DNA of 64,000 bases from Candidatus Pacearchaeota archaeon (lineage in GTDB: Archaea; Nanobdellota; Nanobdellia; Pacearchaeales; GW2011-AR1), in the NCBI GenBank assembly GCA_041654895.1, contig JBAZCR010000002.1:8435-72434 (forward strand), read 5' to 3'. Below the pieces are notes generated by a model, which saw nothing but the letters and a program-made list of their open reading frames with translations, was not told the DNA's origin and did no database searches. A program made the translations under genes and the position numbers. Of this stretch, positions 271-52,068 are shown piece by piece. Each line of letters opens with the position of its first letter. Position 1 is the stretch's first letter.

Positions 271-285
271 TATTATAAAATTACA

Positions 286-729: not shown

Positions 730-730
730 A

Positions 731-2968: not shown

Positions 2969-2978
2969 TTAGATTAAA

Positions 2979-3194: not shown

Positions 3195-3197
3195 AAA

Positions 3198-12439: not shown

Positions 12440-12463
12440 CTCTGCATAATAATGCAAAGGTGC

Positions 12464-17241: not shown

Positions 17242-17290
17242 GTTTATTGTTTACCGTTGACTGTCGACAGTTCACGGTTTACTGTTTACC
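17242..17290. repeat. Heptad array C (7 perfectly phased units) abutting the LamG-2 stop codon
   Basis: GTTTATT GTTTACC GTTGACT GTCGACA GTTCACG GTTTACT GTTTACC. It contains the palindrome ACTGTCGACAGT, and the last unit overlaps the stop codon at 17286-17288. Confidence 0.85.
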
Positions 17291-24168: not shown

Positions 24169-24206
24169 CAAAAACTTTTAAATAAAATTAATGTCAAACA
24201 TTGTTT

Positions 24207-26285: not shown

Positions 26286-29200
26286 TTATTCTTTTATGTC
26301 TTTTATTCTTTTATAAAATTCTACAACAGTATCATAAACAGCATCATTATGCTCAGACATATTTTGGTATTCATTATTTATTCTTTTATAAGTTTCTATT
26401 GCTTGATTTATATCTTTTGATTTTATTTGATTTAATCCATTTAATAATAATTCTTTAATCTCTTGTTTTACCTTAATATCATTTTCTCTATTTTTCTGTA
26501 ATTCTTCTCTTGTAAGTTCTTTCTTTTCTTCTATTATTGGTTTAGGTTTTGGCATTTCACTTATTTTATTTTGAATTTGTGGCGAGAGAGAAGGTCTAGG
26601 GGGAATTCTATTTCTTGGGATATTGTTTCTTTGTTGTTGATTATTTATTGTATTTCCTTGAGGCCTTATTTTTGTTACTTGTGGAGCCTTAGGAGGAGAT
26701 AAAGTAATTGGTCTTCTCTGAGTATTTTGAGTATAATTATTTTTTTGTGAGACAATTTTTTTCTTAGACTTTTTCTTTATAGAGATAACTGTTAGGGATA
26801 ATATAGTCAATATTAAAATTCCTACTGATATACCAATTATTAAAGATAAATTTAGTGGGCTTGGTTTTTCTAAATCTTCTTTTGATGAAGGTTTTTCTTG
26901 AGTATCTGGTTTAGTATTGTTTTCCTTATTATCTGGCTTAGTTTCATTTGCTTTAGTACTTGGTTGTGTGGTATTTGTTGTTCCTCCAGTAGTTCCTCCT
27001 GAAGTTGGAGGAGTTATAACTGCTACTTCTTTACAGTCTGAAATATCAATTGTACAATTATTATAACAAGATAAACTACCAGAATTAAACCCATAGTCAT
27101 AACAGGTTTTTCCATCAATAAATTCTGATGCTTCACATTCCTCATCTCCAGTTATTTTTCGGTCACCGCAACCTGTAAATGAAAAATTGCCCCATTCAAC
27201 TACATTAAAAATTAAATAATGGTTATCATTTATCTCTTCAGAACAGATTTCATTACTACAAGTTTTGCCATTCTTTAAGAAGTTTAAATTAATGACTTGA
27301 TTGTTCCATAAATTAAAAGTTAGTTTTGATTCTTTGTTTAGTTTTGCTAATTTTGTATTATTTAAAAAAATCGAATTTTTAGTTAGATAAATATCTTTAT
27401 CTTTTTTGATATCTCCTAATATTGTTAAATCTTCAAATAACTCTTCGTCTAGCCATATAATACTTGAATAAGTTGATTGGTAATTGATATAATTTTTATT
27501 GTCTATTGAACTCTCGTCTAAAATTGAATGAGAAACATTTTCTGTATATAAATTTTTGATTGTTGTATTTTTTACTTCTTGATTGATATAAATTGCATTT
27601 TCAAAATTTTCTATTAAAGAGAATCCATCTATAGTTATATTTGATGCATTAATGTAAATTGCAGTTCCAGTTCCATTTATTTTTTTATTATTCCCTAAAA
27701 GAGTTATGTTGTTAGCATTTAGTATTAAACAGTTTTCTCCTTCGCTGTTTAAGTTATTCATTACTTGATATATTCTATTAGGATGAATTATTTCTTGACA
27801 AGATTCTATTTTAGTATCTACTATTGTATCTTTAATTAAATAATTTCCACTAGTTGTCGTATTAAAAATTATTTCATTTGTATTTAAAGATTTTATTTTA
27901 GAATCATCATCTTTTATATTATTTCTTGTTAAATTAAAATGAAATAATTCTGTATAACCTCTAGTATTTTTTAATGAAATGTCCATTGTAGAATTTAATT
28001 TTATAATACTTGATGAGATATTTGCTTGTAATTCTCCTATTGATATACTTCCTGGGAAAGTAAGATTATTTTCTAAAGATAAATTTTGTAAGAATGTTTC
28101 ATTTATCCAATTTATTTTTCCATAATTATTTTCAAGACTTAAAAAATTTTGTTTATCTGTTCCTGAATTATCTATTATTGAATTATTTTTAGAAATAGAA
28201 TTTAAATTTTTTATTTGATTATCCCCGCTATTAAGCTTTAATTCAATGCTAGTTGTTAGATTATTTATATTCGCTGAGTTAATATTATTATATGAAGAAT
28301 TTTGTAAAAGGATTCCAGTATTTTCATCTTCTATATTATTTGTTAGAATGTTATTTTCTAAAGTATTATTAATTGAGTCTAATAAAAATATCCCTATCTT
28401 TTTAGGATTTATTAATTTTATATTTTTTAATAAATTTTTTTCTGACTCGGAAATATTAAAATTATATTCTATATTTTCTATTTTTATTGATTCTATTAAA
28501 TTTTCATTTGATTGATTAATTTTTATTGCAGTTGTTTGATCAAACTTTTTTTCACTGATATTAATATTTTTTATTTTATTTTCATTTGATTTTTCTAAAC
28601 TAATACTAATTAAACTAATATTCTCTAAATTTATTTTTTCTATTAGGCTATTATTCACTTGCTTTAGATATAAGAAAGTATTTCCTGTTTTATTATCTGT
28701 GAAATTAACATTGGAAATAGTTGAATTTATTACTTGATTTAAATCAATTAACGTTTGTGATTCTCCAGAGAATTCTATTATCTTTAAATTAGATATATTT
28801 AATAGAACAGAGATTGTAGAATGAATTACTCTCTCTAATGTGTTTTGAAATTGTAAATTCCTTAATGTTATGTTTGTTGAATTATTTATTATTATATCTT
28901 TTAAGTTATTATTAAATTTTATATTGTTTAAATGGATATTTGTAGCATTTTCTATTTTTATTGAATTTTCAAAGTTTTTTAAGACACCATTTTTAATTGT
29001 AATATTTTCTTTATTAGTTATAATTCCAATTTTAGTTTGTGGCTCACTTGAATTAATTACTGCATCATTTAAGTCTAATAAAACATTGTTATTTGTAATA
29101 TTGAAGCAATAATTATCTTCTACTTCTATACTTTGATTTATTAAATATTTACCACCATTAAACCAATTAGAATAACCACATTGTCCAATATAACCTATTT

Positions 29201-31841
29201 CTTCAACAGTATAATTCCCGTCATTAGTTGTATTAAATTTTATAGTTGCAATTTCTAATCCTATAGCAATATTTTCACAAATTTCACATGTCTCATTGTT
29301 TCTTTTATAAGTGTCTGTTCCTACGTTGTAAAATGTTAAATTTATAGTTGAGTTTATTTTTTCATCTACTTCTGTGAAATTCAAAAAGATATTTGAAGGT
29401 TTAATTAATATATTTTTTTCTTTTGTTAAATCTTCCTTGAAACTTAAATTTTGATAGAAATTATTATTTGCCCATTCAACAGTACCGTGAGAATTATTGT
29501 AGATTAAATAATTTAAATCTGAAATCTCTGTTTCATCAAAAATTGAATATTCTGTATTATCAACAAAATTTAAATTTAAAAGAATATTGTTATTAGTACT
29601 TAATGAAGGTGTAGGCGCAAACAAATTTACACCATACTTTTTTCCTTGTTTAAAAGTTATATTTTCAATTAAATTATTTTTTGAGTCTTCTAATTTAATG
29701 CCTTGTGTAAAATTAATTAATTCACCATTTTTTACTTTTATTCCTTCTGACCTTAATATTAAAACTCCACTTCCTGCAGATGAATGTGTTGATTTTAAGA
29801 AATGTCCTTTTAAGTCTAATGTTACATTGTGATTGTCTTCTATGACAAAACAGTTTTGAGCACTATTAAAATTATCAATATTTCTACTTAAAGTATAAAT
29901 TTTATAATTTTTAAAAAACCCTTGGGATTGACAATCATTAATTTCAATGGGTCCATTAATAGAATAGTATCCTAATGAGGTTGTTTTAAAAGAGATGTTA
30001 TTTACACTTCTAGATCTTTCAATACAATCAGGCATACATGTTTCTTGATCTTTTAAAATAAAGATATAATCTTCCCAATTATCATTTCTGTAAAAAGTCA
30101 TATTTATTGATTTGTTTAGTAAATCATAATACGTGTCATTAACATAAATACTATTTTGAGATATCTTCATTTGCTGAGGGTTAAGTATGTTGAATTGTTT
30201 TTGAGTTGTTAAATTTTTATTAATGATATCATCAGCCCAGATAAACTCACCATAATCATTTGAAAATTTAAGATAATTTTGATATGTTGAAGTTGATAAA
30301 TCTTTTATAGAGTAAATTGTATTTTGTGTTTTTAAATTTTCAATAGTATTTTGGTCTGACGAACCTGCTAACTTAATTGCTTGATTTACATTTAATAAAG
30401 TATTATTTTTAATTAAAGATGAATTAGTATTTTCTATTATTATGCCTTTTTTTGAGTATTGATATATTGAACCGTTTTCTATTCCTAAATAGATTTTATT
30501 AATATCCAAAATTATTGACGATATCCATATTTTATCAGAGTTTCCTAATGGTTGCATTTCTACCCATGTTTTACCTGAATCTTCAGATAGATAAACCCTT
30601 TTATTATCTGTTCCAGCAATTATTTTATCTCCATCTTCTGAGATAGATACAGTTTCCCAATTCAGATTATTATCTCCATCAGGTTTTATTTCATACCAAC
30701 TTTCACCTGTATTATTTGAATACCAAAGTTTTCCAGGATTTTCTCCAGCAACTATTTTATTTCCATTAAAAGACATAGATATTGTATTCCAATTTTTTGA
30801 TTCATTTGTTATATTTTTAAAAGTACTTCCACTATCTGTAGACTTGTAAATCTTATCATTATATGCTACTGCAAAAATTAAATTATGTAATCCTGTTATT
30901 GTTAAATCAGTCCAATTTTTTGATTCGTTTGTAACATTGTTAAAATGAGTTCCATTATATTTGTAAATCTGTCCTTCCTTTTCTAGTGCAATTATTGTAT
31001 TAGCTTTTTTTGCAATTCCCAATGCTGTCCAATTTGAATTAATTGCATTTGTTATCCCTTGTGTTTCCCATGTAGAACCATGATCTCCTGATAAATATAT
31101 TGATGAACCTCTATCAGCTAATAGCATAATTGAACCATTTTCATTCATTGCTGTCGCAATCCAATTTCTAGTAGATTGTTTTTCTTCCCATGTTTGACCA
31201 TAATTATTTGATAAGTAAACCTTACCGTTTTTAGCACTAACTAAAATTTTTTGTCCATCATCTGATGTTGAAATAGAAGATAGTGTTCCAGTTTCTATTG
31301 GCGATATTTCATCCCAATTATTTTGTTTTGTTAAGTCTCCTAAATTTTTATTGTCATAAAAAATATTCATTAAATTTATTTTTTTGCTATTTTCTAATTT
31401 TATACCTTCAATAGAAGTATTTTCTATTATTGTATTTAAGAAATTAACTTCTTCAGAATTTTTTATATAAATTGCAATTGATGAATTTTTTATTTTTCCG
31501 CCAATGAATGTAATATTACGAGAATTTTCTAAATAAATTATTGGATAATTTTGTTTTCCTGTTATTGTATGTGATTTTAAATCAATTGTTATATTTTCTT
31601 TATTTGTTAAATTAATACAAATATTATCACTATTTACATTTAAAGTTAAGTCATATACTTCATTATTTTGTAATCCTTGATTTTGTAATGCACAACTATC
31701 AATTGTTGGTTGTTTTAGATCTAATGTTTTAAAAAATTGTCCTGTTATATTATATTTGTTTTCTAAATTATAAGAAATAGTAAATGTTAAAATTGCTAAA
31801 AAAGTTAATATTATCAAGAATTTTTTCATCTCTTTTTTCAT
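26286..31841 (-). CDS. Giant (1851 aa) surface protein: signal peptide, BNR/Asp-box propeller, long right-handed beta-helix repeats, Cys-rich module, T/P/K-rich stalk, TM anchor, cytoplasmic tail
   Basis: Asp-boxes SNNYGQTWEE, SGDHGSTWET, STDSGSTFKN, SNNTGESWYE, SEDSGKTWVE. Many N-rich ~22-aa beta-helix-like repeats (NIxIxNxxF). CGDRKITGDEECE module and PPTSGGTTGGTTNTTQPS stalk. TM segment LIIGISVGILILTILSLTVISI followed by KKKSKKK. Confidence 0.7.
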   Translation of the reverse strand: MKKEMKKFLIILTFLAILTFTISYNLENKYNITGQFFKTLDLKQPTIDSCALQNQGLQNNEVYDLTLNVNSDNICINLTNKENITIDLKSHTITGKQNYPIIYLENSRNITFIGGKIKNSSIAIYIKNSEEVNFLNTIIENTSIEGIKLENSKKINLMNIFYDNKNLGDLTKQNNWDEISPIETGTLSSISTSDDGQKILVSAKNGKVYLSNNYGQTWEEKQSTRNWIATAMNENGSIMLLADRGSSIYLSGDHGSTWETQGITNAINSNWTALGIAKKANTIIALEKEGQIYKYNGTHFNNVTNESKNWTDLTITGLHNLIFAVAYNDKIYKSTDSGSTFKNITNESKNWNTISMSFNGNKIVAGENPGKLWYSNNTGESWYEIKPDGDNNLNWETVSISEDGDKIIAGTDNKRVYLSEDSGKTWVEMQPLGNSDKIWISSIILDINKIYLGIENGSIYQYSKKGIIIENTNSSLIKNNTLLNVNQAIKLAGSSDQNTIENLKTQNTIYSIKDLSTSTYQNYLKFSNDYGEFIWADDIINKNLTTQKQFNILNPQQMKISQNSIYVNDTYYDLLNKSINMTFYRNDNWEDYIFILKDQETCMPDCIERSRSVNNISFKTTSLGYYSINGPIEINDCQSQGFFKNYKIYTLSRNIDNFNSAQNCFVIEDNHNVTLDLKGHFLKSTHSSAGSGVLILRSEGIKVKNGELINFTQGIKLEDSKNNLIENITFKQGKKYGVNLFAPTPSLSTNNNILLNLNFVDNTEYSIFDETEISDLNYLIYNNSHGTVEWANNNFYQNLSFKEDLTKEKNILIKPSNIFLNFTEVDEKINSTINLTFYNVGTDTYKRNNETCEICENIAIGLEIATIKFNTTNDGNYTVEEIGYIGQCGYSNWFNGGKYLINQSIEVEDNYCFNITNNNVLLDLNDAVINSSEPQTKIGIITNKENITIKNGVLKNFENSIKIENATNIHLNNIKFNNNLKDIIINNSTNITLRNLQFQNTLERVIHSTISVLLNISNLKIIEFSGESQTLIDLNQVINSTISNVNFTDNKTGNTFLYLKQVNNSLIEKINLENISLISISLEKSNENKIKNINISEKKFDQTTAIKINQSNENLIESIKIENIEYNFNISESEKNLLKNIKLINPKKIGIFLLDSINNTLENNILTNNIEDENTGILLQNSSYNNINSANINNLTTSIELKLNSGDNQIKNLNSISKNNSIIDNSGTDKQNFLSLENNYGKINWINETFLQNLSLENNLTFPGSISIGELQANISSSIIKLNSTMDISLKNTRGYTELFHFNLTRNNIKDDDSKIKSLNTNEIIFNTTTSGNYLIKDTIVDTKIESCQEIIHPNRIYQVMNNLNSEGENCLILNANNITLLGNNKKINGTGTAIYINASNITIDGFSLIENFENAIYINQEVKNTTIKNLYTENVSHSILDESSIDNKNYINYQSTYSSIIWLDEELFEDLTILGDIKKDKDIYLTKNSIFLNNTKLAKLNKESKLTFNLWNNQVINLNFLKNGKTCSNEICSEEINDNHYLIFNVVEWGNFSFTGCGDRKITGDEECEASEFIDGKTCYDYGFNSGSLSCYNNCTIDISDCKEVAVITPPTSGGTTGGTTNTTQPSTKANETKPDNKENNTKPDTQEKPSSKEDLEKPSPLNLSLIIGISVGILILTILSLTVISIKKKSKKKIVSQKNNYTQNTQRRPITLSPPKAPQVTKIRPQGNTINNQQQRNNIPRNRIPPRPSLSPQIQNKISEMPKPKPIIEEKKELTREELQKNRENDIKVKQEIKELLLNGLNQIKSKDINQAIETYKRINNEYQNMSEHNDAVYDTVVEFYKRIKDIKE

Positions 31842-34880: not shown

Positions 34881-35828
34881 ATGAGAAAAGTTAAAGATTT
34901 TTTATGGAGGGAGAAGATGAATGTTTCTGATTTAGTTGATACTTTTGGGAATTTAGGCTTTCAAGCTTTAGAATTATATGAAGCTAAAAATGTTATTTTA
35001 AAAATGAAAAGAGATAATGCTAAAGTTTTTCTTACTTTTACATCTAATATGGTTACTTCAGGATTAAGAGGATTTTTTGCTCAATTATGTAAGCTAGGTA
35101 TACCAGATATTTTAGTTACAACATCAGGTTCTATTGAAGAAGATTTAATTAAATCAACTGGGGAATCTTTTGAAATTTCAAGTTTTTATGTTGATGATAA
35201 TGCTTTACATGAAAGAGGAGAAAATAGGGTTGGTAATTTAATAATTAGAAATGAAAGTTATATGAAATTTGAGGATTTGATTTCAAAATTACTTTTACAA
35301 ATTTATGGAAAGAAAAAAAGACTATCTTCTTCTGAGTTACTTTATGAATTAGGATTGTTAATTGATGACGAAAATTCTATTCTATCTCAAGCTGCTAAAA
35401 ATAATATTCCAATTTATTGTCCTGGGATAGCTGATTCATCTTTTGGTTTTCAATTATTTATGTTTCAACAGAGGAATCCAGATTTTATTGTAGACACTAT
35501 TTATGATATGAATAGAATTGTAACTGATTTAAATTTTGATGAAAAAAAAGGATTGATTTCTTTAGGTGGTTCAATTTCTAAACATTATGCTATTTTTGCT
35601 GCTTTACTTTCTGGTGGTTTTGACTATGCGGTATACCTAACAACATCACACTCTACATCTGGTTCTTTAAGTGGCGCAACAACTCAAGAAGCGAAGAGTT
35701 GGGGAAAAATAAAAGATGATAGTGCGACAACAACTGTTAATGGAGACGTTAGTATTACTTTTCCATTGTTAATGAGTGCTTGTTTAGATGAAATGAAAAA
35801 TGAAGGATTATTAAATGATAGGAGTTAA
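34881..35828 (+). CDS. dys: Deoxyhypusine synthase
   Basis: SNMVTSGLRG, VTTSGSIEEDLIK, and the catalytic-lysine context QEAKSWGKI. Confidence 0.85.
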   Translation: MRKVKDFLWREKMNVSDLVDTFGNLGFQALELYEAKNVILKMKRDNAKVFLTFTSNMVTSGLRGFFAQLCKLGIPDILVTTSGSIEEDLIKSTGESFEISSFYVDDNALHERGENRVGNLIIRNESYMKFEDLISKLLLQIYGKKKRLSSSELLYELGLLIDDENSILSQAAKNNIPIYCPGIADSSFGFQLFMFQQRNPDFIVDTIYDMNRIVTDLNFDEKKGLISLGGSISKHYAIFAALLSGGFDYAVYLTTSHSTSGSLSGATTQEAKSWGKIKDDSATTTVNGDVSITFPLLMSACLDEMKNEGLLNDRS

Positions 35829-35848
35829 AAATTTTAGTAATATTTTTT

Positions 35849-36886
35849 ATGGAAAAGGCAAAGTTTATATTAGATAAAAAAATTGTTAAGGAACAAATAA
35901 AATCTTTGTTAGACTTAGGTTTAAGTGTTTCTTATTCTTATAAAACAAATCATGAAGTAGGTAATGTGCTACAAGAATTAAATTTAGGTAACTTCTTTTC
36001 AATACACTCTATTAATGAAATTAAAATGATTAAAGATAAGTCTAAAGTTATTTATTTTATACAAGCACAGGACTTTGAAGAGTTAAAAGGAATTATTAAT
36101 CAAGGTATACTAAATTTTGTAGTTGACAATGAAATTGATTTTGGAAGAATTTTAGATGTTGCAAAATTTTTAGAAACTAAAATAAATCTTTCAATAAGGA
36201 TGAAATTACAGGAAAATAGGATTGGCAGTGGAAGGTATTTTGTCTATGGATTGCCTTCAAAAAAGGTTAATGAATTAATAATTAGAGAGAAAGAAAATAA
36301 GTTTATTAATTATTTTGGAATTCATGTTCATAGGAAGAGTCAGAATACTTCTGAGTGGGAGATTATTTCAGAATTAGAAGATTCTATTTTAGATGAGGTT
36401 TTTGATAGGTTAGATTTTATTAATTTAGGAGGAGGTTTACCTGTAAAGTATAAAAGTTATAGCTCTAATATTTTAGAATATATTTTTAAAAAAATAAAAG
36501 AAACTGTTAATTGGTTAAAAAATAAAGATATTCAAGTGTTTATTGAGCCAGGGAGATATATCGCAGCTCCTTCGATAAAATTAGAAACAAGAATAATTCA
36601 AATTCAAGAAAAGAACATTATTTTAAATACTACGCTTTACAATTGTGCACTTGATACACTTTTAACAGGAACTAAAATGATTGTAGAAAATGAGCTCAAA
36701 GATAAAGAAGAAGGAGAATATTATTTAATTAAGGGAAATTCTCCAACAAGAGATGATATTTTTAGATATAATGTTAAATTAAGAAATCCTAAGGTCGGAG
36801 ATAAAATTATTTTTATTAATGCAGGGGCCTATAATTATACAACTGATTTTTTTGGGTATGTTAAATTAGAAACAGAATATATCTAG
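35849..36886 (+). CDS. PLP-dependent group IV decarboxylase (Orn/Arg/DAP decarboxylase family), short form
   Basis: PLP-lysine motif YSYKTNH, HVHRKSQ, NLGGGLPVKY, EPGRYIAAPS, NAGAYNY. Confidence 0.7.
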   Translation: MEKAKFILDKKIVKEQIKSLLDLGLSVSYSYKTNHEVGNVLQELNLGNFFSIHSINEIKMIKDKSKVIYFIQAQDFEELKGIINQGILNFVVDNEIDFGRILDVAKFLETKINLSIRMKLQENRIGSGRYFVYGLPSKKVNELIIREKENKFINYFGIHVHRKSQNTSEWEIISELEDSILDEVFDRLDFINLGGGLPVKYKSYSSNILEYIFKKIKETVNWLKNKDIQVFIEPGRYIAAPSIKLETRIIQIQEKNIILNTTLYNCALDTLLTGTKMIVENELKDKEEGEYYLIKGNSPTRDDIFRYNVKLRNPKVGDKIIFINAGAYNYTTDFFGYVKLETEYI

Positions 36887-36903
36887 AATTCATTTTATGT
36901 TTA

Positions 36904-37635
36904 TTACTTAATAATATTAATTATTTCCTTTACTAATCTTTTAGTTTTTTTCTTTTTATCTTTTTTTGGAACAAATTCTACGATATCTGTTATTATTGGA
37001 TTTTGATTTTTCTTTATTGATTTTATAAGTTTTATAAATTGTCTTTTATTTAATCCGTTTTGTTCTGGATAATTTACTGCTGGAGCAAATTTTGGGTCAT
37101 TTACGTCGATATCTATAGTCAAATATACTTTTTTTCCTTTTGTACTCTTTTCTAAATAATTTAATATTTCTGTTATTTTTTCATTTGGAGTAAAATATTT
37201 AATTTTGTTTTTTTTAATAAATTTCTTTTCCTCTGATTCTATTTTTCTAATTCCAATTAAGCAAATATCTTTTGGATTCCATCCTTCTTTTACCAAACCT
37301 GCTAAAAATTCTTCGTGAGTTGGTTCTTTCATTGGTGGCATACAATCTGCATGTGCATCAAATATTATTAGAAATGATTTTTGCTTGTATTTTTGTAAAA
37401 AGGCTTTTGCCGAGGGGTAAGTTATTGAATGATCTCCACCAATTAAGAGTAAATTTTCTTTTTTGTTTAATTGTTTTTTTATTTCTTTAAAAATTTCTTT
37501 TTCATCTTGAGCAATGTCTTGATTTTCAACATTGACTTTAATATGTTTTATTTTTTTCAATAAAATTTCAGGTGTTTTTTCTGGACCTTTTAGACCTAAT
37601 GCGTTTATTCTTGGGATGGAAATAACTATTCTCAT
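36904..37635 (-). CDS. speB: Agmatinase/arginase-family ureohydrolase, short form
   Basis: Mn-ligand motifs GGDHSITYP, FDAHADC, TIDIDVNDP. Confidence 0.75.
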   Translation of the reverse strand: MRIVISIPRINALGLKGPEKTPEILLKKIKHIKVNVENQDIAQDEKEIFKEIKKQLNKKENLLLIGGDHSITYPSAKAFLQKYKQKSFLIIFDAHADCMPPMKEPTHEEFLAGLVKEGWNPKDICLIGIRKIESEEKKFIKKNKIKYFTPNEKITEILNYLEKSTKGKKVYLTIDIDVNDPKFAPAVNYPEQNGLNKRQFIKLIKSIKKNQNPIITDIVEFVPKKDKKKKTKRLVKEIINIIK

Positions 37636-40827: not shown

Positions 40828-41634
40828 ATGAATTATGAATTCATTGATGTTCATGCTCATTTAGATATGGACCGTTTTAAAGATGATTTAGAAAATGTTA
40901 TTATTAATGCTAAAAATCTTGGTGTTTTGGTTGTTAGTTCTGGAATTAATAGTTTTGCAAATAAGAAAGTTTTAGAATTGTCAAAGAAGTATGATAATAT
41001 TTTTGCATCTTTTGGGATTTATCCTATTGATGGGATTATTAAAGAGTTTCCTAACTTAAAAGATGATGGTCCCAGAGAAATTTTACCATTAGATGTTGAT
41101 TTAGAATTAGAGTGGATTTTAGAGCATAAAGATGATTGCCTTTTTATTGGAGAAGTTGGCCTTGATTTTAAGGTAGTTAAAGTTAATGAAGAAATTAAAA
41201 ATGCACAGGAAAAAAATTTTGAAAAGATTATTTTATTAGCAAAAAAAATTGATAAACCTTTATTGATTCATTCTCGTGGGGCTGAGCTTGAGTGTATTGA
41301 ACTATTAGAAAAACATAATTGTAGAAAAGTAATTATGCACTGCTTTAATGGTAAAAAATCTCTAATAAAGCGAATTATTGACAATGGTTGGTTTTTGACT
41401 GTTCCAGCAGTTATCACTCGTTTAGAGCATTTTAAAATGTTAGTTAGTATAACTCCTCTAAATCAATTATTAACTGAAACTGATTCTCCATATTTATCTC
41501 CAGTTCCAATGACCAGAAATGAACCTAAAAATGTTTTAGTTAGCATCAAAGAAATTGCCAAAATAAAAGAATTAAGTTTTGAAGAGGTTAAAAAAAATAT
41601 TTTTGAAAATGCAAAGAAATTATTGAATATTTAG
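40828..41634 (+). CDS. tatD: TatD-family metal-dependent hydrolase/DNase
   Basis: FIDVHAHLD, GEVGLD, LLIHSR, VIMHCF, ETDSPYL. Confidence 0.85.
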   Translation: MNYEFIDVHAHLDMDRFKDDLENVIINAKNLGVLVVSSGINSFANKKVLELSKKYDNIFASFGIYPIDGIIKEFPNLKDDGPREILPLDVDLELEWILEHKDDCLFIGEVGLDFKVVKVNEEIKNAQEKNFEKIILLAKKIDKPLLIHSRGAELECIELLEKHNCRKVIMHCFNGKKSLIKRIIDNGWFLTVPAVITRLEHFKMLVSITPLNQLLTETDSPYLSPVPMTRNEPKNVLVSIKEIAKIKELSFEEVKKNIFENAKKLLNI

Positions 41635-42102
41635 GTAGTATTTTATTTCTTTAATTGTTTTACAATTTTTATCGGTGTCAATATTTACTTTAATTTGATA
41701 TGGTTTTTCTAATAAATCTTTTGGTGTTTTAGAACTTGCTAATATATCTTCAATGTTTTTTAGAGGACAATCAATTTTTCTACAAATATTATCAGCTATT
41801 TCTTTTTCGATTTCACTCAATTGATTGTTTCTTTGATAATTGAACTTATTTAATTTATGTTTTATTTCATAAGGGCAAGGAAATATTTCCCCTTGTTCAT
41901 TAATAATAACTATATTTTGGTCTAAATCAAAAATATTTTTAGAGTTGTTTTTTTTCACATCTTCAATTTCATTATTCTCATCAAGATAAATAAAAACATA
42001 TTTTGGGATATAAATACCTGTAGTTTGACAATTTATTTTTTGTGGAGCAACTAATGAAGATAAAATTAGTAAACCAGAAACAATCTTTTTTAAACTTTTC
42101 AT
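41620..42102 (-). CDS. Hypothetical secreted protein
   Basis: The internal start MKSLKKIVSGLLILSSLVAPQ looks like a signal peptide. The longer track start would overlap the upstream gene. Confidence 0.4.
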   Translation of the reverse strand: MKSLKKIVSGLLILSSLVAPQKINCQTTGIYIPKYVFIYLDENNEIEDVKKNNSKNIFDLDQNIVIINEQGEIFPCPYEIKHKLNKFNYQRNNQLSEIEKEIADNICRKIDCPLKNIEDILASSKTPKDLLEKPYQIKVNIDTDKNCKTIKEIKYYLNIQ

Positions 42103-42139
42103 AAATAACACTATTTTAAAGTAGTTATAAACTTTTTTG

Positions 42140-42982
42140 TTAGTACTTAAATTCAATTCCCTTTGCACATTTTAGCAACCCTTTTTTTGATTCAGGAATA
42201 TCTTCTCTTTTTGCTAATTTCAGATATTTGTGTATTAATTTTTTTTTGTGGTTTATTGTGAATTTTTGATCAGTATAAGGTCCTCCTATGCAACCTCCTG
42301 GACAAAACAGACAATCTAAAAATAATACATTTTTATTTGGTTTTTTTAAGAACTTATTTACTTCACTTATTCCATCAATTATCCTTACTTGGTTTCTATT
42401 TAAAATTCTTTTAACATGGGCTGTATGGTAAAGTCCTCCACTTAATGGATAGATTTTTGTATAATCATTATAAAATTTATCGAATTGAGCTTTTTTATTA
42501 TCTTCATTAATATTATTTTTCTGAAATAACTCTTTTAATTGTAGAAAATCAATAACATAATCGATTTCTTTTTTTGTTTGACTTTCAATTTTCTTGAAAT
42601 TACATGGAGATATAAAAAATATTTTATGATCTGGATAAACTTTTTTGCTAATTTTTGCCATTGCAATCATAGGTGAATCAACTCTAATTAAATTATTTTT
42701 ATATTCTGGAAAATTTTTTTCAATGTAAAGAGTTATTCCAGGGCAAGTCGATGAAATAAGGAGTTCTTTAGTTTTTTTTAATTTTTTATGATATTCTCTA
42801 TTAATCATTTTTGCACCAAATGTTAATTCGACAACTTTATCAAAACCTAATTTCTTTAATTGATTTATTATTGAAGGATATTTAAAATCTGTAACAAAAC
42901 TAGGAGCAACCATTGCTAAGCATTTTTTATTATTTTTTATTATCTTTTCAATTTTTAGAATATCATTTTTGTTTTTCACCAT
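42140..42982 (-). CDS. Stand-alone [FeFe]-hydrogenase H-domain-like protein (Fe_hyd_lg_C-like), 280 aa
   Basis: Collinear with H-cluster domain landmarks: MVAPSFVTDF, LGFDKVVELTFGAK, SSTCPG (L1), FISPCNFKKIE (L2), SGGL, FLDCLFCPGGCIGGP (L3). Confidence 0.6.
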   Translation of the reverse strand: MVKNKNDILKIEKIIKNNKKCLAMVAPSFVTDFKYPSIINQLKKLGFDKVVELTFGAKMINREYHKKLKKTKELLISSTCPGITLYIEKNFPEYKNNLIRVDSPMIAMAKISKKVYPDHKIFFISPCNFKKIESQTKKEIDYVIDFLQLKELFQKNNINEDNKKAQFDKFYNDYTKIYPLSGGLYHTAHVKRILNRNQVRIIDGISEVNKFLKKPNKNVLFLDCLFCPGGCIGGPYTDQKFTINHKKKLIHKYLKLAKREDIPESKKGLLKCAKGIEFKY

Positions 42983-43066: not shown

Positions 43067-43672
43067 ATGAATTTTAAAGAATGTTATTTTAAATTTTTTG
43101 GATTATTTTATGTAATTATAGGAATTTTAGCAATTTTTAATGTTATATTTGGTATTGATTCTGCATCCTCGTTGTGGATTTCTTATTTTGCATTTTTTTT
43201 CATTGGTTTAGGAATACTAACTAAAGATTCATATTTGATAGGAAGTTGGTTTAATATTATTTTTATTCCATATTTTTTTTGGTCTGCTGATTACTTGTAT
43301 AATTTATTTTTTAGTAAAAGTTTGTGGGGTATTACAGACTATATGTTTAGTTCGAGATTATTTATTTCTCAAATAATTTCTATTCAACACTTTTTTATTA
43401 TTCCAGTAGCAATTTTATCAATTTACTTTATAAAAATTCAGAAAAAGGATTTTTGGAAATTAAGTGTATCTATAATAAGTATACTTTTTATTTTGACTAG
43501 ACTTTTTACAAAACCTATTGAAAATGTTAATTGTATTTTTAAGAGTTGTTTGACTTTTGAAATTGTTTCTCCTTTATATCCTGTAATATGGTTTTTAGCT
43601 TTCTTTATTATGATTGGGTTAGTTAATCTTCTTTTAGTTAAATTAAGATTTTTTAACTCAAACAAAAATTAA
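43067..43672 (+). CDS. Hypothetical polytopic membrane protein
   Basis: About 6 hydrophobic helices. Confidence 0.45.
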   Translation: MNFKECYFKFFGLFYVIIGILAIFNVIFGIDSASSLWISYFAFFFIGLGILTKDSYLIGSWFNIIFIPYFFWSADYLYNLFFSKSLWGITDYMFSSRLFISQIISIQHFFIIPVAILSIYFIKIQKKDFWKLSVSIISILFILTRLFTKPIENVNCIFKSCLTFEIVSPLYPVIWFLAFFIMIGLVNLLLVKLRFFNSNKN

Positions 43673-47786: not shown

Positions 47787-48581
47787 TTATTCAAATTTTT
47801 CTAAAAATGTTGGTTCCTTTTTCTGGAATATTATTCCTATAGGAATTTTTTTATTTTTTGAATTATAATCAAATTCTTCTGCTAGTAATGTTGCCTTTTT
47901 GTAGTCTGTATTGTCTTTTATTTTATACATAAACTTATCTTTATTATTTATATCCTTATTAAAGATAAGACAATCTTGCATTATTTCTACATAGCTAAAT
48001 CCCTTATGTTTGATTGCTTTAGTAAACACTTCAACCATATGAGGTATGTCTCTTGCGTTTGTTCTTGCAATAAAAGTTGCATTTGATGCTAGAGCTAATT
48101 TAATTGGATTAATTGGAATATTTTTTTCTATTCTATTTTCTCCTTTTATTAGATATCCCCTTTGTGATGTTGCTGTTGCTTGTCCTGTTGTGAGTGAGAA
48201 ATTTTGGTTATTATGTATAAATAATGTCATATCTTGATTATATCTAAATGCATGGATAAGGTGAGATATTCCTTCTGAATAAATTGCTCCATCACCTGCA
48301 AAAGTTAATATGTTTAATTTTGGATTTGCTAATTTTATTCCAAATGCTGTTGGAAGTGCTCTACCATGAAGAGAATAAATACCACTTAAATTAAGATAGT
48401 CAAATATTTTTGAATTACAACCAATATCTGTTGTCATGGCAAAATCATTATGATTTATTTTTTCTTTTTCTATTAAATTTGCGATTGTTTGTTTTATTGC
48501 TTCTAAAATTAAAAAATTAGGACAACCCGGGCACCATGTTATTGGCTCATTTGTTTTTAATTTCTCTTTTGATTTATTCAT
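47787..48581 (-). CDS. 2-oxoacid:ferredoxin oxidoreductase, beta (TPP-binding) subunit
   Basis: WCPGCPNFLIL, GDGAIYSEG...NNQNFSLTTGQ. Confidence 0.88.
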   Translation of the reverse strand: MNKSKEKLKTNEPITWCPGCPNFLILEAIKQTIANLIEKEKINHNDFAMTTDIGCNSKIFDYLNLSGIYSLHGRALPTAFGIKLANPKLNILTFAGDGAIYSEGISHLIHAFRYNQDMTLFIHNNQNFSLTTGQATATSQRGYLIKGENRIEKNIPINPIKLALASNATFIARTNARDIPHMVEVFTKAIKHKGFSYVEIMQDCLIFNKDINNKDKFMYKIKDNTDYKKATLLAEEFDYNSKNKKIPIGIIFQKKEPTFLEKFE

Positions 48582-50098
48582 TTTATTATTTCTTTTATTT
48601 TTTTGTTTAATTCGTCAGTAAAAAAAGGTCTTCCATCGTATTTTAAAATTTTATTATCTATATTTGTTTGTATTTTTTGTTTGATTAACTCTGCTAATTG
48701 AGATGTTGCGTTGTTTTCAATAATTATTATTTTTTTTGATTTTGATAATTCCTTTTTAATCTCTTCAGGAAATGGATTTAAATATAAAATTTGTAAGAAT
48801 TTAGCATCAATATTTTTGATTGCATCAATTATTGCTCCTTTAGTTGAACCCCATCCTATAATTAAATTTTTAGAATTTTTGTTTCCGTAAATATCATATG
48901 TTCTAAATTTATTTACTTGATTTTTAATTTCTTTTTCTTTTGATAATCTTTTATTCACATTCTCAATTATTTGATTTTTATCTTCTGTTGAATTTCCAAA
49001 TTTGTTTGTTTCATAACTTGATTTTTTGTTTATTTTATTTGAATAGGTTTTAGAAAAAATTAAAGGTTTTTTATAGTCTAATTTTACAGAATATTCACTC
49101 TCGGCTAAATGTTTATCTGATAAAATTATCGACAATGAATTGTATTTTTCAGCTAAATAAATTAATTGGTTAGTTAATTCTATAGCCTGTATTGGGTCTC
49201 CTGGTGCAGCAACAATTCTTGTAAATTCGCCATGTCCTATGTTTAAGGCCAAATTCAAATCACTTTGAGAAGTATAAGTTGGTATACCTGTTGCAGGTCC
49301 TGGTCGAGAAGCAAGATAAACTGTTAAGGGTATTTCACTTATTCCTTGCATACTAATTGCTTCGCCCATTAAATCAACTCCTCCTCCACTTGAGCCAACC
49401 ATTACTTTTTTTCCAGCAAAACTTGCTCCTAATGCTATATTTGCGACTGCAATTTCATTTTCAGGTTGAAAGAATTTTAATTTTTTATCATTCATTAAAC
49501 AAATCTCGCTTGTTACACCAGTTGCAGGTGTCATAGGATAAGCAAAGTAAAAATCTAATTTTGAATTTCTTGCCCCTATAGCAATAGCACGACTTCCTGA
49601 AATTATCTCTGCTTTATTATTTAGTTTTTTTAATTTATATATTTCTTTTTGAGAAGCATAACCCTTCTTTGCAGCATCTGTTGAATTTACATAGTTCAAA
49701 TATTTTTTTACTTCTTTAATTAAGTATGATTCAGGTATACCTAATGCTTTTACTAATGACCCTGCTAAGGCAACGTTAATATTTTTTTTAAATTCTAAAA
49801 AATCATCACTCTTTAAAATAACTGCATTTTCTTTTAAATTATCTTTATGTAAATATAATGTTTTTTGATCTAATGCAATTAAAAAATCAACTTTTTCATC
49901 GTTACTTTCAATTTCCTGATCACTAATACATAATATACTAAAATTATGTCCTCCTCTAATTATACTTTGATAATCTCTATAATTAAAAGTATAATAACCA
50001 TATGAAGTTAAAACTCTTGAAATAATTTGAGAAATTTTATTTATACCCTGTCCTGCAGAACCACCTACTAAAATATTTAGTCTCATTTTCACCTCCAT
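48578..50098 (-). CDS. 2-oxoacid:ferredoxin oxidoreductase, alpha subunit with fused gamma-like N-terminal domain
   Basis: N-terminus LNILVGGSAGQGINK (gamma domain), then an alpha-type core (YPMTPATG). 4-nt overlap with the beta gene. Confidence 0.85.
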   Translation of the reverse strand: MEVKMRLNILVGGSAGQGINKISQIISRVLTSYGYYTFNYRDYQSIIRGGHNFSILCISDQEIESNDEKVDFLIALDQKTLYLHKDNLKENAVILKSDDFLEFKKNINVALAGSLVKALGIPESYLIKEVKKYLNYVNSTDAAKKGYASQKEIYKLKKLNNKAEIISGSRAIAIGARNSKLDFYFAYPMTPATGVTSEICLMNDKKLKFFQPENEIAVANIALGASFAGKKVMVGSSGGGVDLMGEAISMQGISEIPLTVYLASRPGPATGIPTYTSQSDLNLALNIGHGEFTRIVAAPGDPIQAIELTNQLIYLAEKYNSLSIILSDKHLAESEYSVKLDYKKPLIFSKTYSNKINKKSSYETNKFGNSTEDKNQIIENVNKRLSKEKEIKNQVNKFRTYDIYGNKNSKNLIIGWGSTKGAIIDAIKNIDAKFLQILYLNPFPEEIKKELSKSKKIIIIENNATSQLAELIKQKIQTNIDNKILKYDGRPFFTDELNKKIKEIIK

Positions 50099-50206: not shown

Positions 50207-50770
50207 ATGAAGGGGTTGATTGATTCTTTTGGAATTTTAAGAGATTTTAATATTGCTAAATTTTTTATTGTTGAATCTTCTTCTGATTTAAATAAATTAA
50301 AATTTCCTTATTATATGAAAATAGATTCTGAAAAACATAAATTAAATTTAGGGGGAGTTTTATTTTGTAAAGATTTAGAAGAGGCTGAAAAGAATTATAA
50401 ACTTTTAAGAAATAAATTTAGTGAAAGGATTGTAATTCAAGAAGAGATTAAAGGAATAGAGTTAATATTAGGTATAAAAAAAGATGATATTTTCGGATTT
50501 GTTTTAATGCTTGGATTTGGTGGGAGTAAACTTTCTAAAGAGGGTATAACTTTTAGAGTTTTAAAATTAAATAGAAGTGAAATTAATAATGCTTTAAATG
50601 AATTTGATAAAGATATACTAAAAAAATATGTATATAAGGAAAAGTTAATTAGCTTTATTGAGATGATTTGTTTTTTAGCTGAAAAAAAAAATATTAAAGA
50701 AATGGATTTAAATCCTATAATCTTATCTAGTAAAGGACCTTTTATTGTTGATGCAAGAATTAAAATTTAA
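50207..50770 (+). CDS. acdB: ADP-forming acetyl-CoA synthetase, beta (ATP-grasp) subunit
   Basis: ATP-grasp_5-like pattern: YYMKIDSEKHKLNLGGV, LILGIKKDDIFGFVLMLGFGG, EMDLNPIIL...VDARIKI. Confidence 0.7.
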   Translation: MKGLIDSFGILRDFNIAKFFIVESSSDLNKLKFPYYMKIDSEKHKLNLGGVLFCKDLEEAEKNYKLLRNKFSERIVIQEEIKGIELILGIKKDDIFGFVLMLGFGGSKLSKEGITFRVLKLNRSEINNALNEFDKDILKKYVYKEKLISFIEMICFLAEKKNIKEMDLNPIILSSKGPFIVDARIKI

Positions 50771-52068
50771 ATTTTTGAAATTGTCTTACATAATTGTTCT
50801 GGTTCTGAGAAATTAATTATTTTATTTTTATCTAATATTTTTTTTGCTTCATTTATTTTTTCTCCTCCAATAAAACAAGTGAATAAAGGTTTTTTTATTG
50901 TATTTAGTAATTTTGCTACTTTTTCTGGTTGACTTGTATGTTGTGGAGTTAAAATTAAAATTATATTTTCTGTTTCTTTATCATTTTCTATAATGTCTAA
51001 AACTTTTTTATAATCTTCAGGTGCAGCGTCTCCGATAATATCTATTGGATTATTTTTAGACCAATTTAGAGGTAATATTTTGTTTAGTGATTCAATTGTT
51101 TTATTAGAGAGTTTTGTTAAGGGGATATTATATCTTTCACAATAGTCTGCAGATAATACGCCAAAGCCTCCTGCATTTGTTATTATAGTTGTATTTTTTT
51201 TAATTTTTTGGTATTTTTCTAATATCTTTGCCACATTAAACATTTCTGTTACTGAATCTACTTGGATTAATTTTGCTTGTTGAAATGCTCCTTTGTAAAT
51301 TTCTGAATCTGTTGCAAGAGCTGCAGTATGTGATTTGGCTGCGTTTTGTCCAGATTTAGAATTTCCACCTTTTAAGACAATAATTGGTTTTTTTGATTTT
51401 TTAGATATTTCAATAAATTCTCTCCCACTATTTTTTTGTAAACTTTCTATATAAAGGCAAATTACTTTTGTTTTATCGTCGTGGATTAAATAGTCTATTA
51501 AATTATTAAAATTAATATCAATTGAATTACCTAGTGAAATAAATTTAGAAAAAGAATTAATTTTATCTAACATTGCTGAAGCTATTGCTCCTGATTGAGA
51601 GATAAAACCAATATTTCCTTTGTTTAAATTCCCTGAATAAAATGTTGTATTTAAATTTTGAGAAGTGTCAATTATTCCAAAAGAATTTGGTCCTAAAATT
51701 CTAATATTTTCTTCTATTGCGATTCTTTTAATGTGTTCTTCTAATTCTTTATTATTGCTTTCAGAAAATCCTGCTGAAATAATAATAGCATACTTTATTT
51801 TTCTTTTCCCAGCTTGTCTTAATATTAAAGGAATTGTCTTTGCAGGACTTGCAATAATTATTACATCTATATTATAAGGTGTTTCAATTAAGTCAGAAAA
51901 AATTTCTTGATTTAAAATTTTTTTAGTGTTTGGATTTATTCCAATTACTTTTTTATTAGAGTTTAATAAATTTTTAAAGATAATATTTCCTACTTTTTTT
52001 TCGTCTCTACTTACACCAATAACAGCATAAGTTTTAGCGTCAAAGATATTTCTTACAACCTCTTTCAT
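50767..52068 (-). CDS. acdA: ADP-forming acetyl-CoA synthetase, alpha subunit (CoA-binding + ligase-CoA domains)
   Basis: AVIGVSRDEKKVGNIIFKNL, GPNSFGII, SQSGAIA, and phosphohistidine context AKSHTAALA. Confidence 0.85.
   Translation of the reverse strand: MKEVVRNIFDAKTYAVIGVSRDEKKVGNIIFKNLLNSNKKVIGINPNTKKILNQEIFSDLIETPYNIDVIIIASPAKTIPLILRQAGKRKIKYAIIISAGFSESNNKELEEHIKRIAIEENIRILGPNSFGIIDTSQNLNTTFYSGNLNKGNIGFISQSGAIASAMLDKINSFSKFISLGNSIDINFNNLIDYLIHDDKTKVICLYIESLQKNSGREFIEISKKSKKPIIVLKGGNSKSGQNAAKSHTAALATDSEIYKGAFQQAKLIQVDSVTEMFNVAKILEKYQKIKKNTTIITNAGGFGVLSADYCERYNIPLTKLSNKTIESLNKILPLNWSKNNPIDIIGDAAPEDYKKVLDIIENDKETENIILILTPQHTSQPEKVAKLLNTIKKPLFTCFIGGEKINEAKKILDKNKIINFSEPEQLCKTISKI

Follow-up and report, generated by a model that had tools for sequence, protein, structure and literature searches.

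hydA, a gene in the 64-kb stretch of archaeal DNA analyzed here (the window), probably encodes a group E 'ultraminimal' [FeFe] hydrogenase that evolves H2 downstream of a 2-oxoacid oxidoreductase (OFOR) and an ADP-forming acetyl-CoA synthetase in a DPANN archaeon. The gene lies at 42140..42982 on the minus strand, starts with ATG and encodes 280 amino acids plus a stop codon (32.7 kDa, pI 9.7). Its product is a typical member of its family and not a new kind of enzyme; the class was published in 2024. The original prediction had correctly pointed to a recent report of minimal forms from DPANN archaea, and the product corresponds to group E of that report (Greening et al., 2024). There, group E enzymes are described as H-domain-only proteins of DPANN archaea (Iainarchaeota, Micrarchaeota and Nanoarchaeota) with a mean length of 286 aa, sister to sensory group C and often encoded next to OFOR genes (Greening et al., Cell 2024, PMC11216029). 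It is also stated there that the H-cluster Cys ligands are present and that the proton-transferring residues differ from those of group A (PMC11216029). Our group E assignment is a predicted one that rests on these defining features and on neighbors; the characterized example of the group is the enzyme Fm, and a second construct is Na.

The only Pfam domain in the product is PF02906 (Fe_hyd_lg_C, E 2.4e-41), and the whole profile (positions 1–245 of 245) aligns to aa 19–235; the domain is complete and there is no accessory Fe-S domain. The length of 280 aa compares with the group E mean of 286. TIGR04105 ('monomeric [FeFe] hydrogenase') is the top match among NCBIfam profiles (E 2e-45), but it is limited to the C-terminal H-domain half (profile positions 205–458 of 462) and at 155 bits falls far under the family cutoff of 450. 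For TIGR02512 the score is 66 bits, where the cutoff is 406. The Pfam scan found no Fer4 domain in the product, and CxxCxxC is absent from it and from all stop-to-stop segments of at least 35 aa across the window. The AF2 model (pLDDT 86.3, pTM 0.85) was searched with Foldseek, and the best 50 PDB matches are [FeFe] hydrogenase H-domains only (TMq 0.69–0.78); PDB sequence matches are likewise [FeFe] hydrogenases. The search for homologs returned 1168 proteins, the best 120 of which are all 269–308 aa long with PF02906 only. These results bear out the original description of an ORF collinear with the H-cluster domain, lacking ferredoxin-like N-terminal domains and smaller than the algal minimal enzymes (280 aa versus 457 aa for HydA1; PMC11216029).

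Residue equivalences with CpI were taken from a HMMER profile alignment, and invariance was judged in an alignment of 40 family members. Motif L1, SSTCPG (aa 77–82; 42737..42754, minus strand), aligns to CpI 'TSCCPG', with C80 at the position of C300, a [4Fe-4S]H ligand. Motif L2, SPCNFKKIE (aa 125–133; 42584..42610, minus strand), aligns to CpI 'MPCTSKKFE'. Here C127 corresponds to the ligand C355 and K130 to K358, which binds CN, and S125 stands in place of M353. Motif L3, LDCLFCPGGCIGGP (aa 222–235; 42278..42319, minus strand), aligns to 'EVMACHGGCVNGG', so that C227 corresponds to C499 and C231 to the bridging C503, with L225 in place of M497. Nearer the N-terminus, APSF (aa 26–29; 42896..42907, minus strand) aligns to CpI 'APS' (A230-P231-S232), a loop that in CpI hydrogen-bonds one of the CN ligands at the [2Fe] subcluster.

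Invariant positions are A26, P27, S28 and F29; P126, C127, K130, K131 and E133 in L2; and D223, F226, C227, G229, G230, C231 and G234 in L3. C80 of L1 is also invariant, so that all four H-cluster Cys (C80, C127, C227 and C231) are kept across the family. As aligned, the four sit where they can ligate the [4Fe-4S] subcluster and link it to the [2Fe] subcluster. The counterparts of the residues that hold the CN ligands at the [2Fe] site of CpI (A26-P27-S28, P104 and K130) are invariant together with bridging C231 down to about 57% identity, and mostly kept in more distant members. Ahead of C80 there is just one Cys, C21, and it is not conserved. The three motifs lie where the original prediction placed them, with one correction in L3: the extra Cys (C224 of 'LDC') is not conserved. 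That column is C/V/I/G/T in relatives, so C224 falls outside the motif and was rejected as a fifth ligand or extra-cluster Cys.

Conserved ligands leave the matter of maturation. As originally stated, no maturase is encoded nearby: profile searches found no hydE, hydF or hydG in the 64-kb window. The sole radical-SAM gene (3198–3896) adjoins NrdD and is assigned to NrdG2, whose curated cutoff its score exceeds, and the only GTPases are EF-2 and EF-1alpha. This lack of HydE/F/G counts against the main reading, in which formation of the [2Fe] subcluster in vivo is putative. HydEFG are also missing from the majority of group E genomes, one of them closed, according to Greening et al. (PMC11216029). 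Such findings suit a protein that never receives [2Fe] in vivo and serves as a [4Fe-4S]-only electron carrier for OFOR or as a Nar1/NARF-like protein, an explanation that we consider quite improbable. The L1 (xSxCPG) and L2 (PCxxKKxE) motifs of the product presumably resemble the NARF versions, which also speaks for it. The invariance of the [2Fe]-specific residues speaks against it, as does the ready binding of [2Fe]adt by Fm in a well-defined pocket, with turnover (PMC11216029). Several relatives co-encode a ferredoxin, so a surrogate carrier would be unnecessary.

Nar1/NARF (CIAO3) proteins share the Pfam domain family and have lost the relay Cys; they belong to the eukaryotic CIA pathway, carry an additional Cys cluster at the N-terminus and bind no [2Fe] subcluster. 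The hydA product has an archaeal host, no Nar1-type N-terminal Cys cluster and a conserved [2Fe] site. Placement with Nar1/NARF or with unrelated Fe-S proteins, which the original prediction had named as an outcome that would refute it, was not seen: all significant profile and structure matches are true [FeFe] hydrogenases. We rejected a Nar1/NARF identity on host, architecture, the invariant [2Fe]-site residues and these search results, NARF being set apart by description.

The residues around the predicted H-cluster differ from those of group A. T79 pairs with the proton-relay Cys299 of CpI, Y64 with Glu279 and I98 with Ser319; beyond the relay, M353 is replaced by S125, M497 by L225 and Phe417 by Tyr. 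The entire group A proton path is gone, as in sensory groups C and D. None of Cys299, Glu279, Ser319 and Glu282 is kept, so protons could not use that relay, and from this absence we infer that they probably reach the exposed active site by a short water- or Tyr/Glu-lined route. The original observation that Thr replaces the relay Cys is right, but it marks no peculiarity of this gene, since the position is P/T/A/V family-wide, as in sensory groups (PMC10055695). Among the 120 closest homologs, 116 have a recognizable L1 pattern, with Pro in 42, Thr in 25, Ala in 25, Val in 22 and Ser in 1; Cys never occurs at this position. Thr79 is uniform within the closest sub-lineage; as a conserved substitute relay it was rejected at the family level. 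We also rejected the alternative proton path of group D: the position of TamHydS E252, mapped by eye only, is an invariant Leu184 here. We take the same position to be Val in group A enzymes (V423 by our own CpI numbering). The change of Met497 to Leu225 counts against a working hydrogenase. In a prototypical group A enzyme, M497L (CpI numbering) prevents proper integration of [2Fe] (PMC10055695). Group C enzymes tolerate non-Met residues there.

The second sphere as a whole follows the pattern of sensory group C, in which Cys299 is replaced by T/P/A/V, Met353 by Ser, Met497 by Leu and Phe417 by Tyr. Replacement of the relay Cys and of Met353 and Phe417, with loss of Met497 (PMC10055695, PMC10407848), would fit an H2 sensor of low turnover or a module for redox regulation, as in groups C and D, in place of an enzyme that evolves H2 in bulk; in the nearest longer homologs, PAS, sigma-54 activator or MCP domains serve as outputs. 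Nevertheless, a sensory role is very unlikely. The product has no output, PAS or accessory-cluster domain, and orthologs share operons with a catabolic OFOR and not with regulatory genes. Fm is bidirectional and biased to H+ reduction, unlike TmHydS (PMC11216029). Many DPANN genomes have a hydA-type gene as their sole hydrogenase, so there is nothing obvious to regulate.

Relatives of hydA are present in at least 216 GTDB species genomes, and 77 of the 80 best GTDB loci have titles naming Nano-, Pace- or Woesearchaeota or an unclassified archaeon. The host is itself a DPANN archaeon of the Nanoarchaeota, similar to Pacearchaeota or Woesearchaeota, by its archaeal informational genes and by synteny. 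The window encodes EF-2, EF-1alpha, RpoB/RpoA, a ThrRS editing domain and deoxyhypusine synthase, and it is syntenic with the Nanoarchaeota MAG JAEWUG010000010 (64–96% protein identity; 85% for hydA). After about 30 short representatives, the next-best matches are proteins of about 460–820 aa. Seven of ten long relatives scanned with Pfam have Fer4, the H-domain and FeS, and six of those also have PAS, sigma54 or MCP domains; the closest long homologs, at 31–39% identity, thus show the sensory group C architecture. In a neighbor-joining tree, which is distance-based, rooted on group-B-like sequences and without support values, the product falls in a clade of 28 consisting of 27 short proteins and one Fer4 fusion. 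Outside this clade, within the next larger one, are the long sensory types. Both the order of homologs and this tree agree with a sister relationship to group C. A look-up of the cluster members of ten distant short representatives yielded no organism names. When distant short members were made into a search profile, no match was named for Forterrea, Iainarchaeota or Diapherotrites, but CPR members came up. CPR/Patescibacteria genomes carry close relatives of the ultraminimal enzyme (42–44% identity), so the clade may not be specific to archaea; a literature search on CPR group E hydrogenases gave nothing relevant.

The OFOR that the original prediction placed at 47.8–50.1 kb was recovered at 47787–50098 (PF02775, TIGR02177, TIGR03710). 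Its beta subunit gene, oforB (47787..48581, minus strand), encodes the TPP and [4Fe-4S] subunit (PF02775; NF008820/TIGR02177, E 1e-64 to 2e-74). The alpha subunit gene, oforA (48578..50098, minus strand), has an N-terminal gamma domain and matches POR, POR_N and PFOR_II as well as TIGR03710 (E 7e-122). The enzyme is of the two-subunit type, without a delta or ferredoxin-like subunit. Next come the subunits of an ADP-forming acetyl-CoA synthetase: the ATP-grasp beta subunit (50207..50770, plus strand; PF13549 ATP-grasp_5, and a partial match to archaeal acetate–CoA ligase) and the alpha subunit (50767..52068, minus strand; Succ_CoA_lig/CoA_binding domains, TIGR02717, E 1.3e-125). A PEP synthase is also encoded in the window.

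By analogy, the most likely function would be ferredoxin-dependent H2 evolution coupled to OFOR and the synthetase, with the nearby OFOR as the presumed electron source. The two-subunit OFOR would oxidize pyruvate or another 2-oxoacid to acyl-CoA, from which the synthetase would make ATP. Electrons would pass to the surface-near [4Fe-4S]H, most likely via a small ferredoxin with a single cluster, the gene for which would lie elsewhere in the genome. The hydA product would then reduce protons to H2, regenerating the oxidized carrier and disposing of the electrons of fermentation. Fm, the group E enzyme of 'Ca. Forterrea multitransposorum', carries one [4Fe-4S] together with [2Fe]adt, gives FTIR bands of the H-cluster and works in both directions with a bias to H+ reduction (PMC11216029). 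Activity is published for Fm only; the Na construct is described as expressed but poorly soluble (PMC11216029).

Neighboring genes in related loci support an OFOR partnership. About a quarter to half of relatives show oforA-oforB-hydA coupling: among 67 informative loci, oforB lies within 60 nt of hydA in 19 (order oforA-oforB-hydA), on the same strand no more than 1.2 kb upstream in 31, and within 8 kb in 40. In 36 of 80 related loci, OFOR alpha precedes oforB-hydA. In the 19 tightest loci the oforB stop overlaps or abuts the hydA start, typically at −4 to −29 nt, several being of the ATGA type. Small ferredoxin genes (~60 aa, CxxCxxC...CP) occur within 8 kb of hydA in 10 of the 80 loci; in seven of these the distance from the hydA stop is about 900 nt or less, and some loci have oforA-oforB-fdx convergent with hydA. 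Within the window itself, hydA and OFOR are about 4.8 kb apart with unrelated genes on both strands between them, which counts against coupling to OFOR, and no ferredoxin gene was found, which counts against a ferredoxin chain.

The overlaps are typical of subunits made together, and they raise the idea that HydA binds the two-subunit OFOR directly and draws its electrons from the [4Fe-4S] cluster of the beta subunit. The pair would then be a 2-oxoacid:proton oxidoreductase that needs no ferredoxin, a 'pyruvate-hydrogen lyase' module. The OFOR without a ferredoxin-like subunit, the rarity of ferredoxin genes nearby and the solvent-exposed H-cluster in group E models (PMC11216029) would all suit such docking. 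We consider it unlikely, however: OFOR, a small ferredoxin and hydA occur together in at least 10 related loci, which argues for a three-component chain; the two genes are uncoupled in the window; no OFOR–HydA fusion occurs among the best 150 representatives; and small ferredoxin genes may sit elsewhere in the genome. A broader form of the idea, which we regard as rather unlikely, is that HydA of this family may be a third subunit of OFOR whose H-cluster is assembled independently of HydEFG, the gene in the window being a detached copy. If true, 2-oxoacid oxidation would be coupled to H2 release without free ferredoxin.

Two ORFs flank hydA. The product of 41620–42168 has an N-terminal stretch resembling a signal peptide, and that of 43067–43672 is hydrophobic and probably a multi-pass membrane protein; neither has a family match. 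Both are conserved only in the nearest relative (L001), and we rejected them as parts of a hydrogenase module. An Rfam scan of the window found two tRNAs only.

As one more typical member of the 2024 class, this hydA alone changes nothing. The family raises the questions of how the H-cluster is assembled in genomes without HydEFG, how protons gain access without the canonical relay when the key position allows Pro, Ala, Val or Thr, and whether tight oforAB-hydA coupling reflects a physical complex. It is also the smallest known H-cluster scaffold, which is relevant to engineering.

Compared with known systems, the product departs in its motifs from group A, which is defined by TSCCP, MPCxxKxxE, ExMxCxxGCxxGG and Glu279/Ser319/Glu282; hydA reads SSTCP, SPCNFKKIE and DCLFCPGGCIGG. 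Chlamydomonas reinhardtii HydA1 (group A, M1, 457 aa) shares the H-domain-only architecture, the fold (Foldseek match to 3lx4_A, E 2.3e-12, TMq 0.72, 16% identity in the structural alignment) and ferredoxin dependence, which is putative here. Unlike the hydA product, it retains TSCCP, MPC and Met497 as well as the complete Cys-Glu-Ser-Glu-Arg proton path, is about 180 residues longer through loops and insertions, and requires HydEFG. Monomeric group B enzymes (TIGR04105; CpIII, ToHydA) give the top-scoring curated H-domain profile and belong to the same B–E superclade. Their N-terminal ferredoxin-like domains span about 200 aa, and their TSCCCP keeps the relay Cys (bioRxiv 10.1101/2025.03.17.643706). 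TmHydS (group C, Thermotoga maritima) and TamHydS (group D) share with the product a non-relay residue for Cys299, a small residue (Ser/Gly) for Met353, an unconserved Met497 and Tyr at Phe417. The N-terminal [4Fe-4S] and C-terminal Fe-S domains of groups C and D, with PAS or signaling domains in C, are missing from the hydA product, which has neither N-terminal Fer4 nor C-terminal FeS/PAS/output domain, and its genomic context is catabolic, not regulatory. With group E (Fm) it shares the H-domain alone, a single [4Fe-4S] plus a [2Fe] site (predicted here), the four Cys, a DPANN host, an adjacent OFOR in relatives, HydEFG not nearby and multidomain kin in sensory group C. The proton residues are not those of group A, and the relay position, variable in the family, is Thr in the hydA sub-lineage. 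Judged by described features, we detected no difference in kind from group E; hydA here simply lies about 4.8 kb off the OFOR operon.

The hydA gene is an intact reading frame of 280 codons plus stop on the minus strand (42140-42982, ATG start). As the original prediction of a stand-alone H-domain-like protein had it, the product carries one complete Fe_hyd_lg_C domain and no other (PF02906, E 2.4e-41), with residues 19-235 covering the profile from position 1 to its end at 245. Among NCBIfam models TIGR04105 ('monomeric [FeFe] hydrogenase') scores best (E 2e-45), through its H-domain half (positions 205-458 of 462), and group A models come next. PDB sequence searches with the protein and with a profile built from 40 family members returned significant matches (E below about 0.03) only to [FeFe] hydrogenases, including T. 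maritima HydA, CpI, CbA5H, CrHydA1 and DdH. The best 50 Foldseek matches in the PDB to an AlphaFold2 model made with the family alignment as input (mean pLDDT 86.3, pTM 0.85) all came from the catalytic domains of [FeFe] hydrogenases, with query-normalised TM of 0.69-0.78 and E from 1.6e-15 to 3e-12, so profile and structure searches both group hydA with these enzymes.

The predicted H-cluster-binding motifs were placed at residues 77-82 (L1, SSTCPG), 125-133 (L2, SPCNFKKIE) and 222-235 (L3, LDCLFCPGGCIGGP). HMMER aligns C80, C127, C227 and C231 with C300, C355, C499 and C503 of CpI, the group A reference for residue numbering, and these four ligand cysteines are invariant in a 40-member alignment of the family. 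Invariant in the same alignment are A26-P27-S28 (CpI A230-P231-S232), S103-P104 (CpI S323-P324), K130 (CpI K358) and the GGCxGG of L3; their CpI counterparts grip the CN ligands and bridging thiolate of the [2Fe] subcluster. The first reading holds in all its details but one: the extra cysteine in the 'LDC' of L3 falls in an unconserved column. By sequence, hydA encodes one domain only, and the site in it for the H-cluster is intact and conserved.

No hydE, hydF or hydG was found within the 64-kb window, in agreement with the first reading, and its sole radical-SAM gene is NrdG2, which exceeds the curated cutoff and adjoins NrdD. The missing maturases would fit a [4Fe-4S]-only, NARF-like or carrier protein. 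This is contradicted by the invariant [2Fe]-site residues and by Fm ('Ca. Forterrea multitransposorum'), a group E construct that was purified with 4.2 Fe per protein, cleanly took up synthetic [2Fe]adt and gave H-cluster FTIR signatures, according to Greening et al. (Cell, 2024; PMC11216029); it may still describe the state of hydA in vivo.

T79 lies opposite the CpI proton-relay C299 in the HMMER alignment. The reported Cys-to-Thr change in L1 is real, but it is not special to hydA, being a trait of the family that groups C and D share. The L1 pattern was found in 116 of the 120 closest homologues, and in these the position is Pro in 42, Thr in 25, Ala in 25, Val in 22, Ser in 1 and Cys in none. 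More distant short representatives (under 330 aa) have A, P, N, V, T or S, with Cys in 2 of 33 L1 matches, and both Cys-bearing proteins lie outside the neighbour-joining short clade. The sub-lineage nearest the window is the only one in which Thr is fixed. The remainder of the group A proton path, as judged from alignments, is likewise absent: E279 becomes the invariant Tyr64, S319 becomes Ile98, and the E282/R286 region is opposite Lys-rich helix residues. The proton supply would necessarily be non-canonical. Because the relay position is variable, Pro included, a short water-mediated path to the exposed site is the likeliest route; it might run through the invariant Tyr64, Glu63 or Tyr178.

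Other substitutions are Met353 to Ser125, Met497 to Leu225 and, mapped by eye, Phe417 to Tyr178. This is the pattern reported for enzymes of sensory group C, with Ala, Pro or Ser for C299, Gly, Ser or Thr for M353, an unconserved M497 and Tyr223 for Phe (PMC10055695; PMC10407848). This group-C-like second sphere suggests a sensory or regulatory role, but that is contradicted by three points: hydA has no output domain, its operon context is catabolic, and Fm is described as bidirectional with a bias toward proton reduction (PMC11216029).

In a set of 5.8 billion proteins, 1168 homologues reach E<=1e-5. The top 120 range from 269 to 308 aa and have PF02906 as their only domain; where a source is named, it is a MAG of Pacearchaeota, Nanoarchaeota or 'archaeon'. 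In GTDB, scanned with one genome for each species, 216 genomes hold a relative; 77 of the best 80 are titled Nano-, Pace- or Woesearchaeota or unclassified archaeon. The other three carry bacterial labels (L043, L051 and L074; Fusobacteriaceae and two 'bacterium') and encode proteins 58-63% identical to the query. Two of these loci, on contigs of just 2.6 and 3.6 kb, are probably mis-binned, and L074 is on a 237-kb contig.

A phmmer search run over all of 1.84 billion 50%-identity representatives gave 2077 matches. Short proteins or fragments (259-316 aa if full-length) make up the best 26 and the majority of the best 40, followed mostly by proteins of ~460-820 aa whose H-domain begins near residue 60. 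A Pfam scan of ten longer homologues found Fer4, Fe_hyd_lg_C and 'FeS' (PF04060) together in seven, six of which additionally carry PAS, sigma-54 activator or MCP signalling domains; this is the architecture of sensory group C. A distance-based neighbour-joining tree without support values, built from 132 H-domains with group-B-like sequences as the root, puts the query in a clade of 28 members. Of these, 27 are shorter than 330 aa and the other is a 352-aa Fer4 fusion; the long sensory types lie outside this clade, in the next larger one. The fusion protein, P0138, joins an N-terminal 2x[4Fe-4S] ferredoxin domain to a minimal H-domain, so that nature has here linked a ferredoxin and an ultraminimal hydrogenase in one chain.

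Proteins of 283-296 aa with the H-domain alone are also annotated to CPR/Patescibacteria (P0279, P0288, P0307, P0348, P0274; L081:8001-8852), as Parcubacteria, Staskawiczbacteria or Absconditabacteria-like. They are 42-44% identical to the query over full length, nearer than any sensory-type homologue. One such gene, on a 479-kb contig, adjoins a LysM-CHAP peptidoglycan hydrolase gene, a bacterial context, so the ultraminimal clade seems to span both DPANN archaea and CPR bacteria. Greening et al. describe group E as archaeal and make no mention of CPR members (PMC11216029).

The OFOR (2-oxoacid:ferredoxin oxidoreductase) that had been noted nearby is a two-subunit enzyme encoded at 47787-50098 on the same strand as hydA, with a beta subunit (47787-48581) about 4.8 kb upstream of hydA and a gamma-alpha fusion (48578-50098). 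Both subunits of ADP-forming acetyl-CoA synthetase (ACD) are encoded beside it (50207-52068), and a PEP synthase gene is also near. OFOR would convert 2-oxoacid and CoA to acyl-CoA, CO2 and two electrons, and ACD would convert acyl-CoA, ADP and Pi to acid and ATP. The electrons would pass through ferredoxin to [4Fe-4S]H and [2Fe]H of hydA, where 2 H+ would be reduced to H2.

An OFOR beta orthologue lies within 8 kb of hydA in 41 of 80 related loci (40 of the 67 with enough upstream sequence). In 31 of the 67 it precedes hydA on the same strand by no more than 1.2 kb, and in 19 the stop of oforB lies right at the hydA start or overlaps it (-55 to +44 nt, often between -4 and -29); oforA is upstream of oforB. 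In locus L005 the order is oforA-oforB-hydA, and next comes the same TatD gene as borders hydA in the window. The separation in the window therefore looks derived, with unrelated genes inserted between OFOR and hydA. A ~60-aa single-cluster ferredoxin gene (MVKVSVDKKKCIGCGxC...CP) is present in the flanking sequence in 10 of the 80 loci (L058:8840-9031, L069:8841-9083, L070:8853-9032, L059:8219-8428, L018:9706-9885 and others). In seven of the ten it either lies no more than about 900 nt from the hydA stop or comes right after oforB, and in four it abuts or overlaps hydA or oforB; no ferredoxin-like ORF was found within the 64-kb window. By gene order, linkage of hydA to OFOR is strong and recurrent, and in some genomes extends to a small ferredoxin. 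The overlapping oforB and hydA frames, and an OFOR without a delta subunit, suggest that OFOR might pass electrons straight to HydA, ferredoxin-free; against this, some loci encode OFOR, ferredoxin and HydA jointly, and the two genes are uncoupled in the window.

Both ORFs flanking hydA lack family matches and are conserved only in the nearest relative, L001. The divergently transcribed one (43067-43672, plus strand, 201 aa, hydrophobic) is probably a multi-pass membrane protein. The other (41620-42168, minus strand) has a signal-peptide-like N-terminal stretch and probably starts at an internal ATG near 42102.

The window is an AT-rich archaeal chromosome segment (about 25% GC), collinear with a Nanoarchaeota MAG contig (16 ORF matches, 64-96% protein identity; hydA 85%). 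It encodes EF-2, EF-1alpha, RpoB, RpoA, S12, S7, archaeal-type ThrRS, ProRS, deoxyhypusine synthase, NrdR-NrdD-NrdG, PEP synthase and large surface proteins. The cluster of NrdR, anaerobic ribonucleotide reductase NrdD and NrdG2 activase (265-3896, plus strand) is consistent with a strictly anaerobic lifestyle. In archaea, the A' and A'' parts of the largest RNA polymerase subunit are usually two genes. Here one 1137-aa ORF (57653-61066, plus strand) holds Rpb1 domains 1-5, and the subunit therefore appears unsplit. A 463-aa ORF (8846-10237, minus strand) contains 27 cysteines and matches no Pfam family. Several very large proteins predicted to be on the cell surface (10334-12457, 17286-19787 and 26286-31841, minus strand; 24201-25601, plus strand) include triple Laminin_G_3/ConA-like lectin domains, seven DUF285 repeats and a 1851-aa sortilin/beta-helix protein, features typical of episymbiotic DPANN cell surfaces. 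A hypusine/polyamine cluster adjoining EF-2 (34881-37635) encodes deoxyhypusine synthase, an Orn/Arg-decarboxylase-like PLP enzyme and an arginase-family (agmatinase-like) protein.

The residual value of hydA is in two questions on its family, maturation and proton transfer, and in the coupling to OFOR; the comparative loci sharpen these without settling them. The remark in the first reading that minimal forms had recently been reported from DPANN archaea was right: Greening et al. (2024; PMC11216029) define group E 'ultraminimal' [FeFe] hydrogenases from Iainarchaeota, Micrarchaeota and Nanoarchaeota. These average 286 residues, consist of the H-domain only with condensed loops and a solvent-exposed H-cluster, and keep the ligating cysteines with different proton-transfer residues. 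The group is monophyletic and sister to sensory group C, its genes often adjoin OFOR genes in Nanoarchaeota, and HydEFG is missing in most of its genomes, the closed Forterrea genome among them. Activity is reported there for Fm, whereas the account of Na, the second construct, covers only its expression and poor solubility. hydA shares every defining feature of group E that we examined and most likely is of this type, an assignment made from those features and from its neighbours among the homologues. It is a further member of a known, widespread enzyme class, not a new class.
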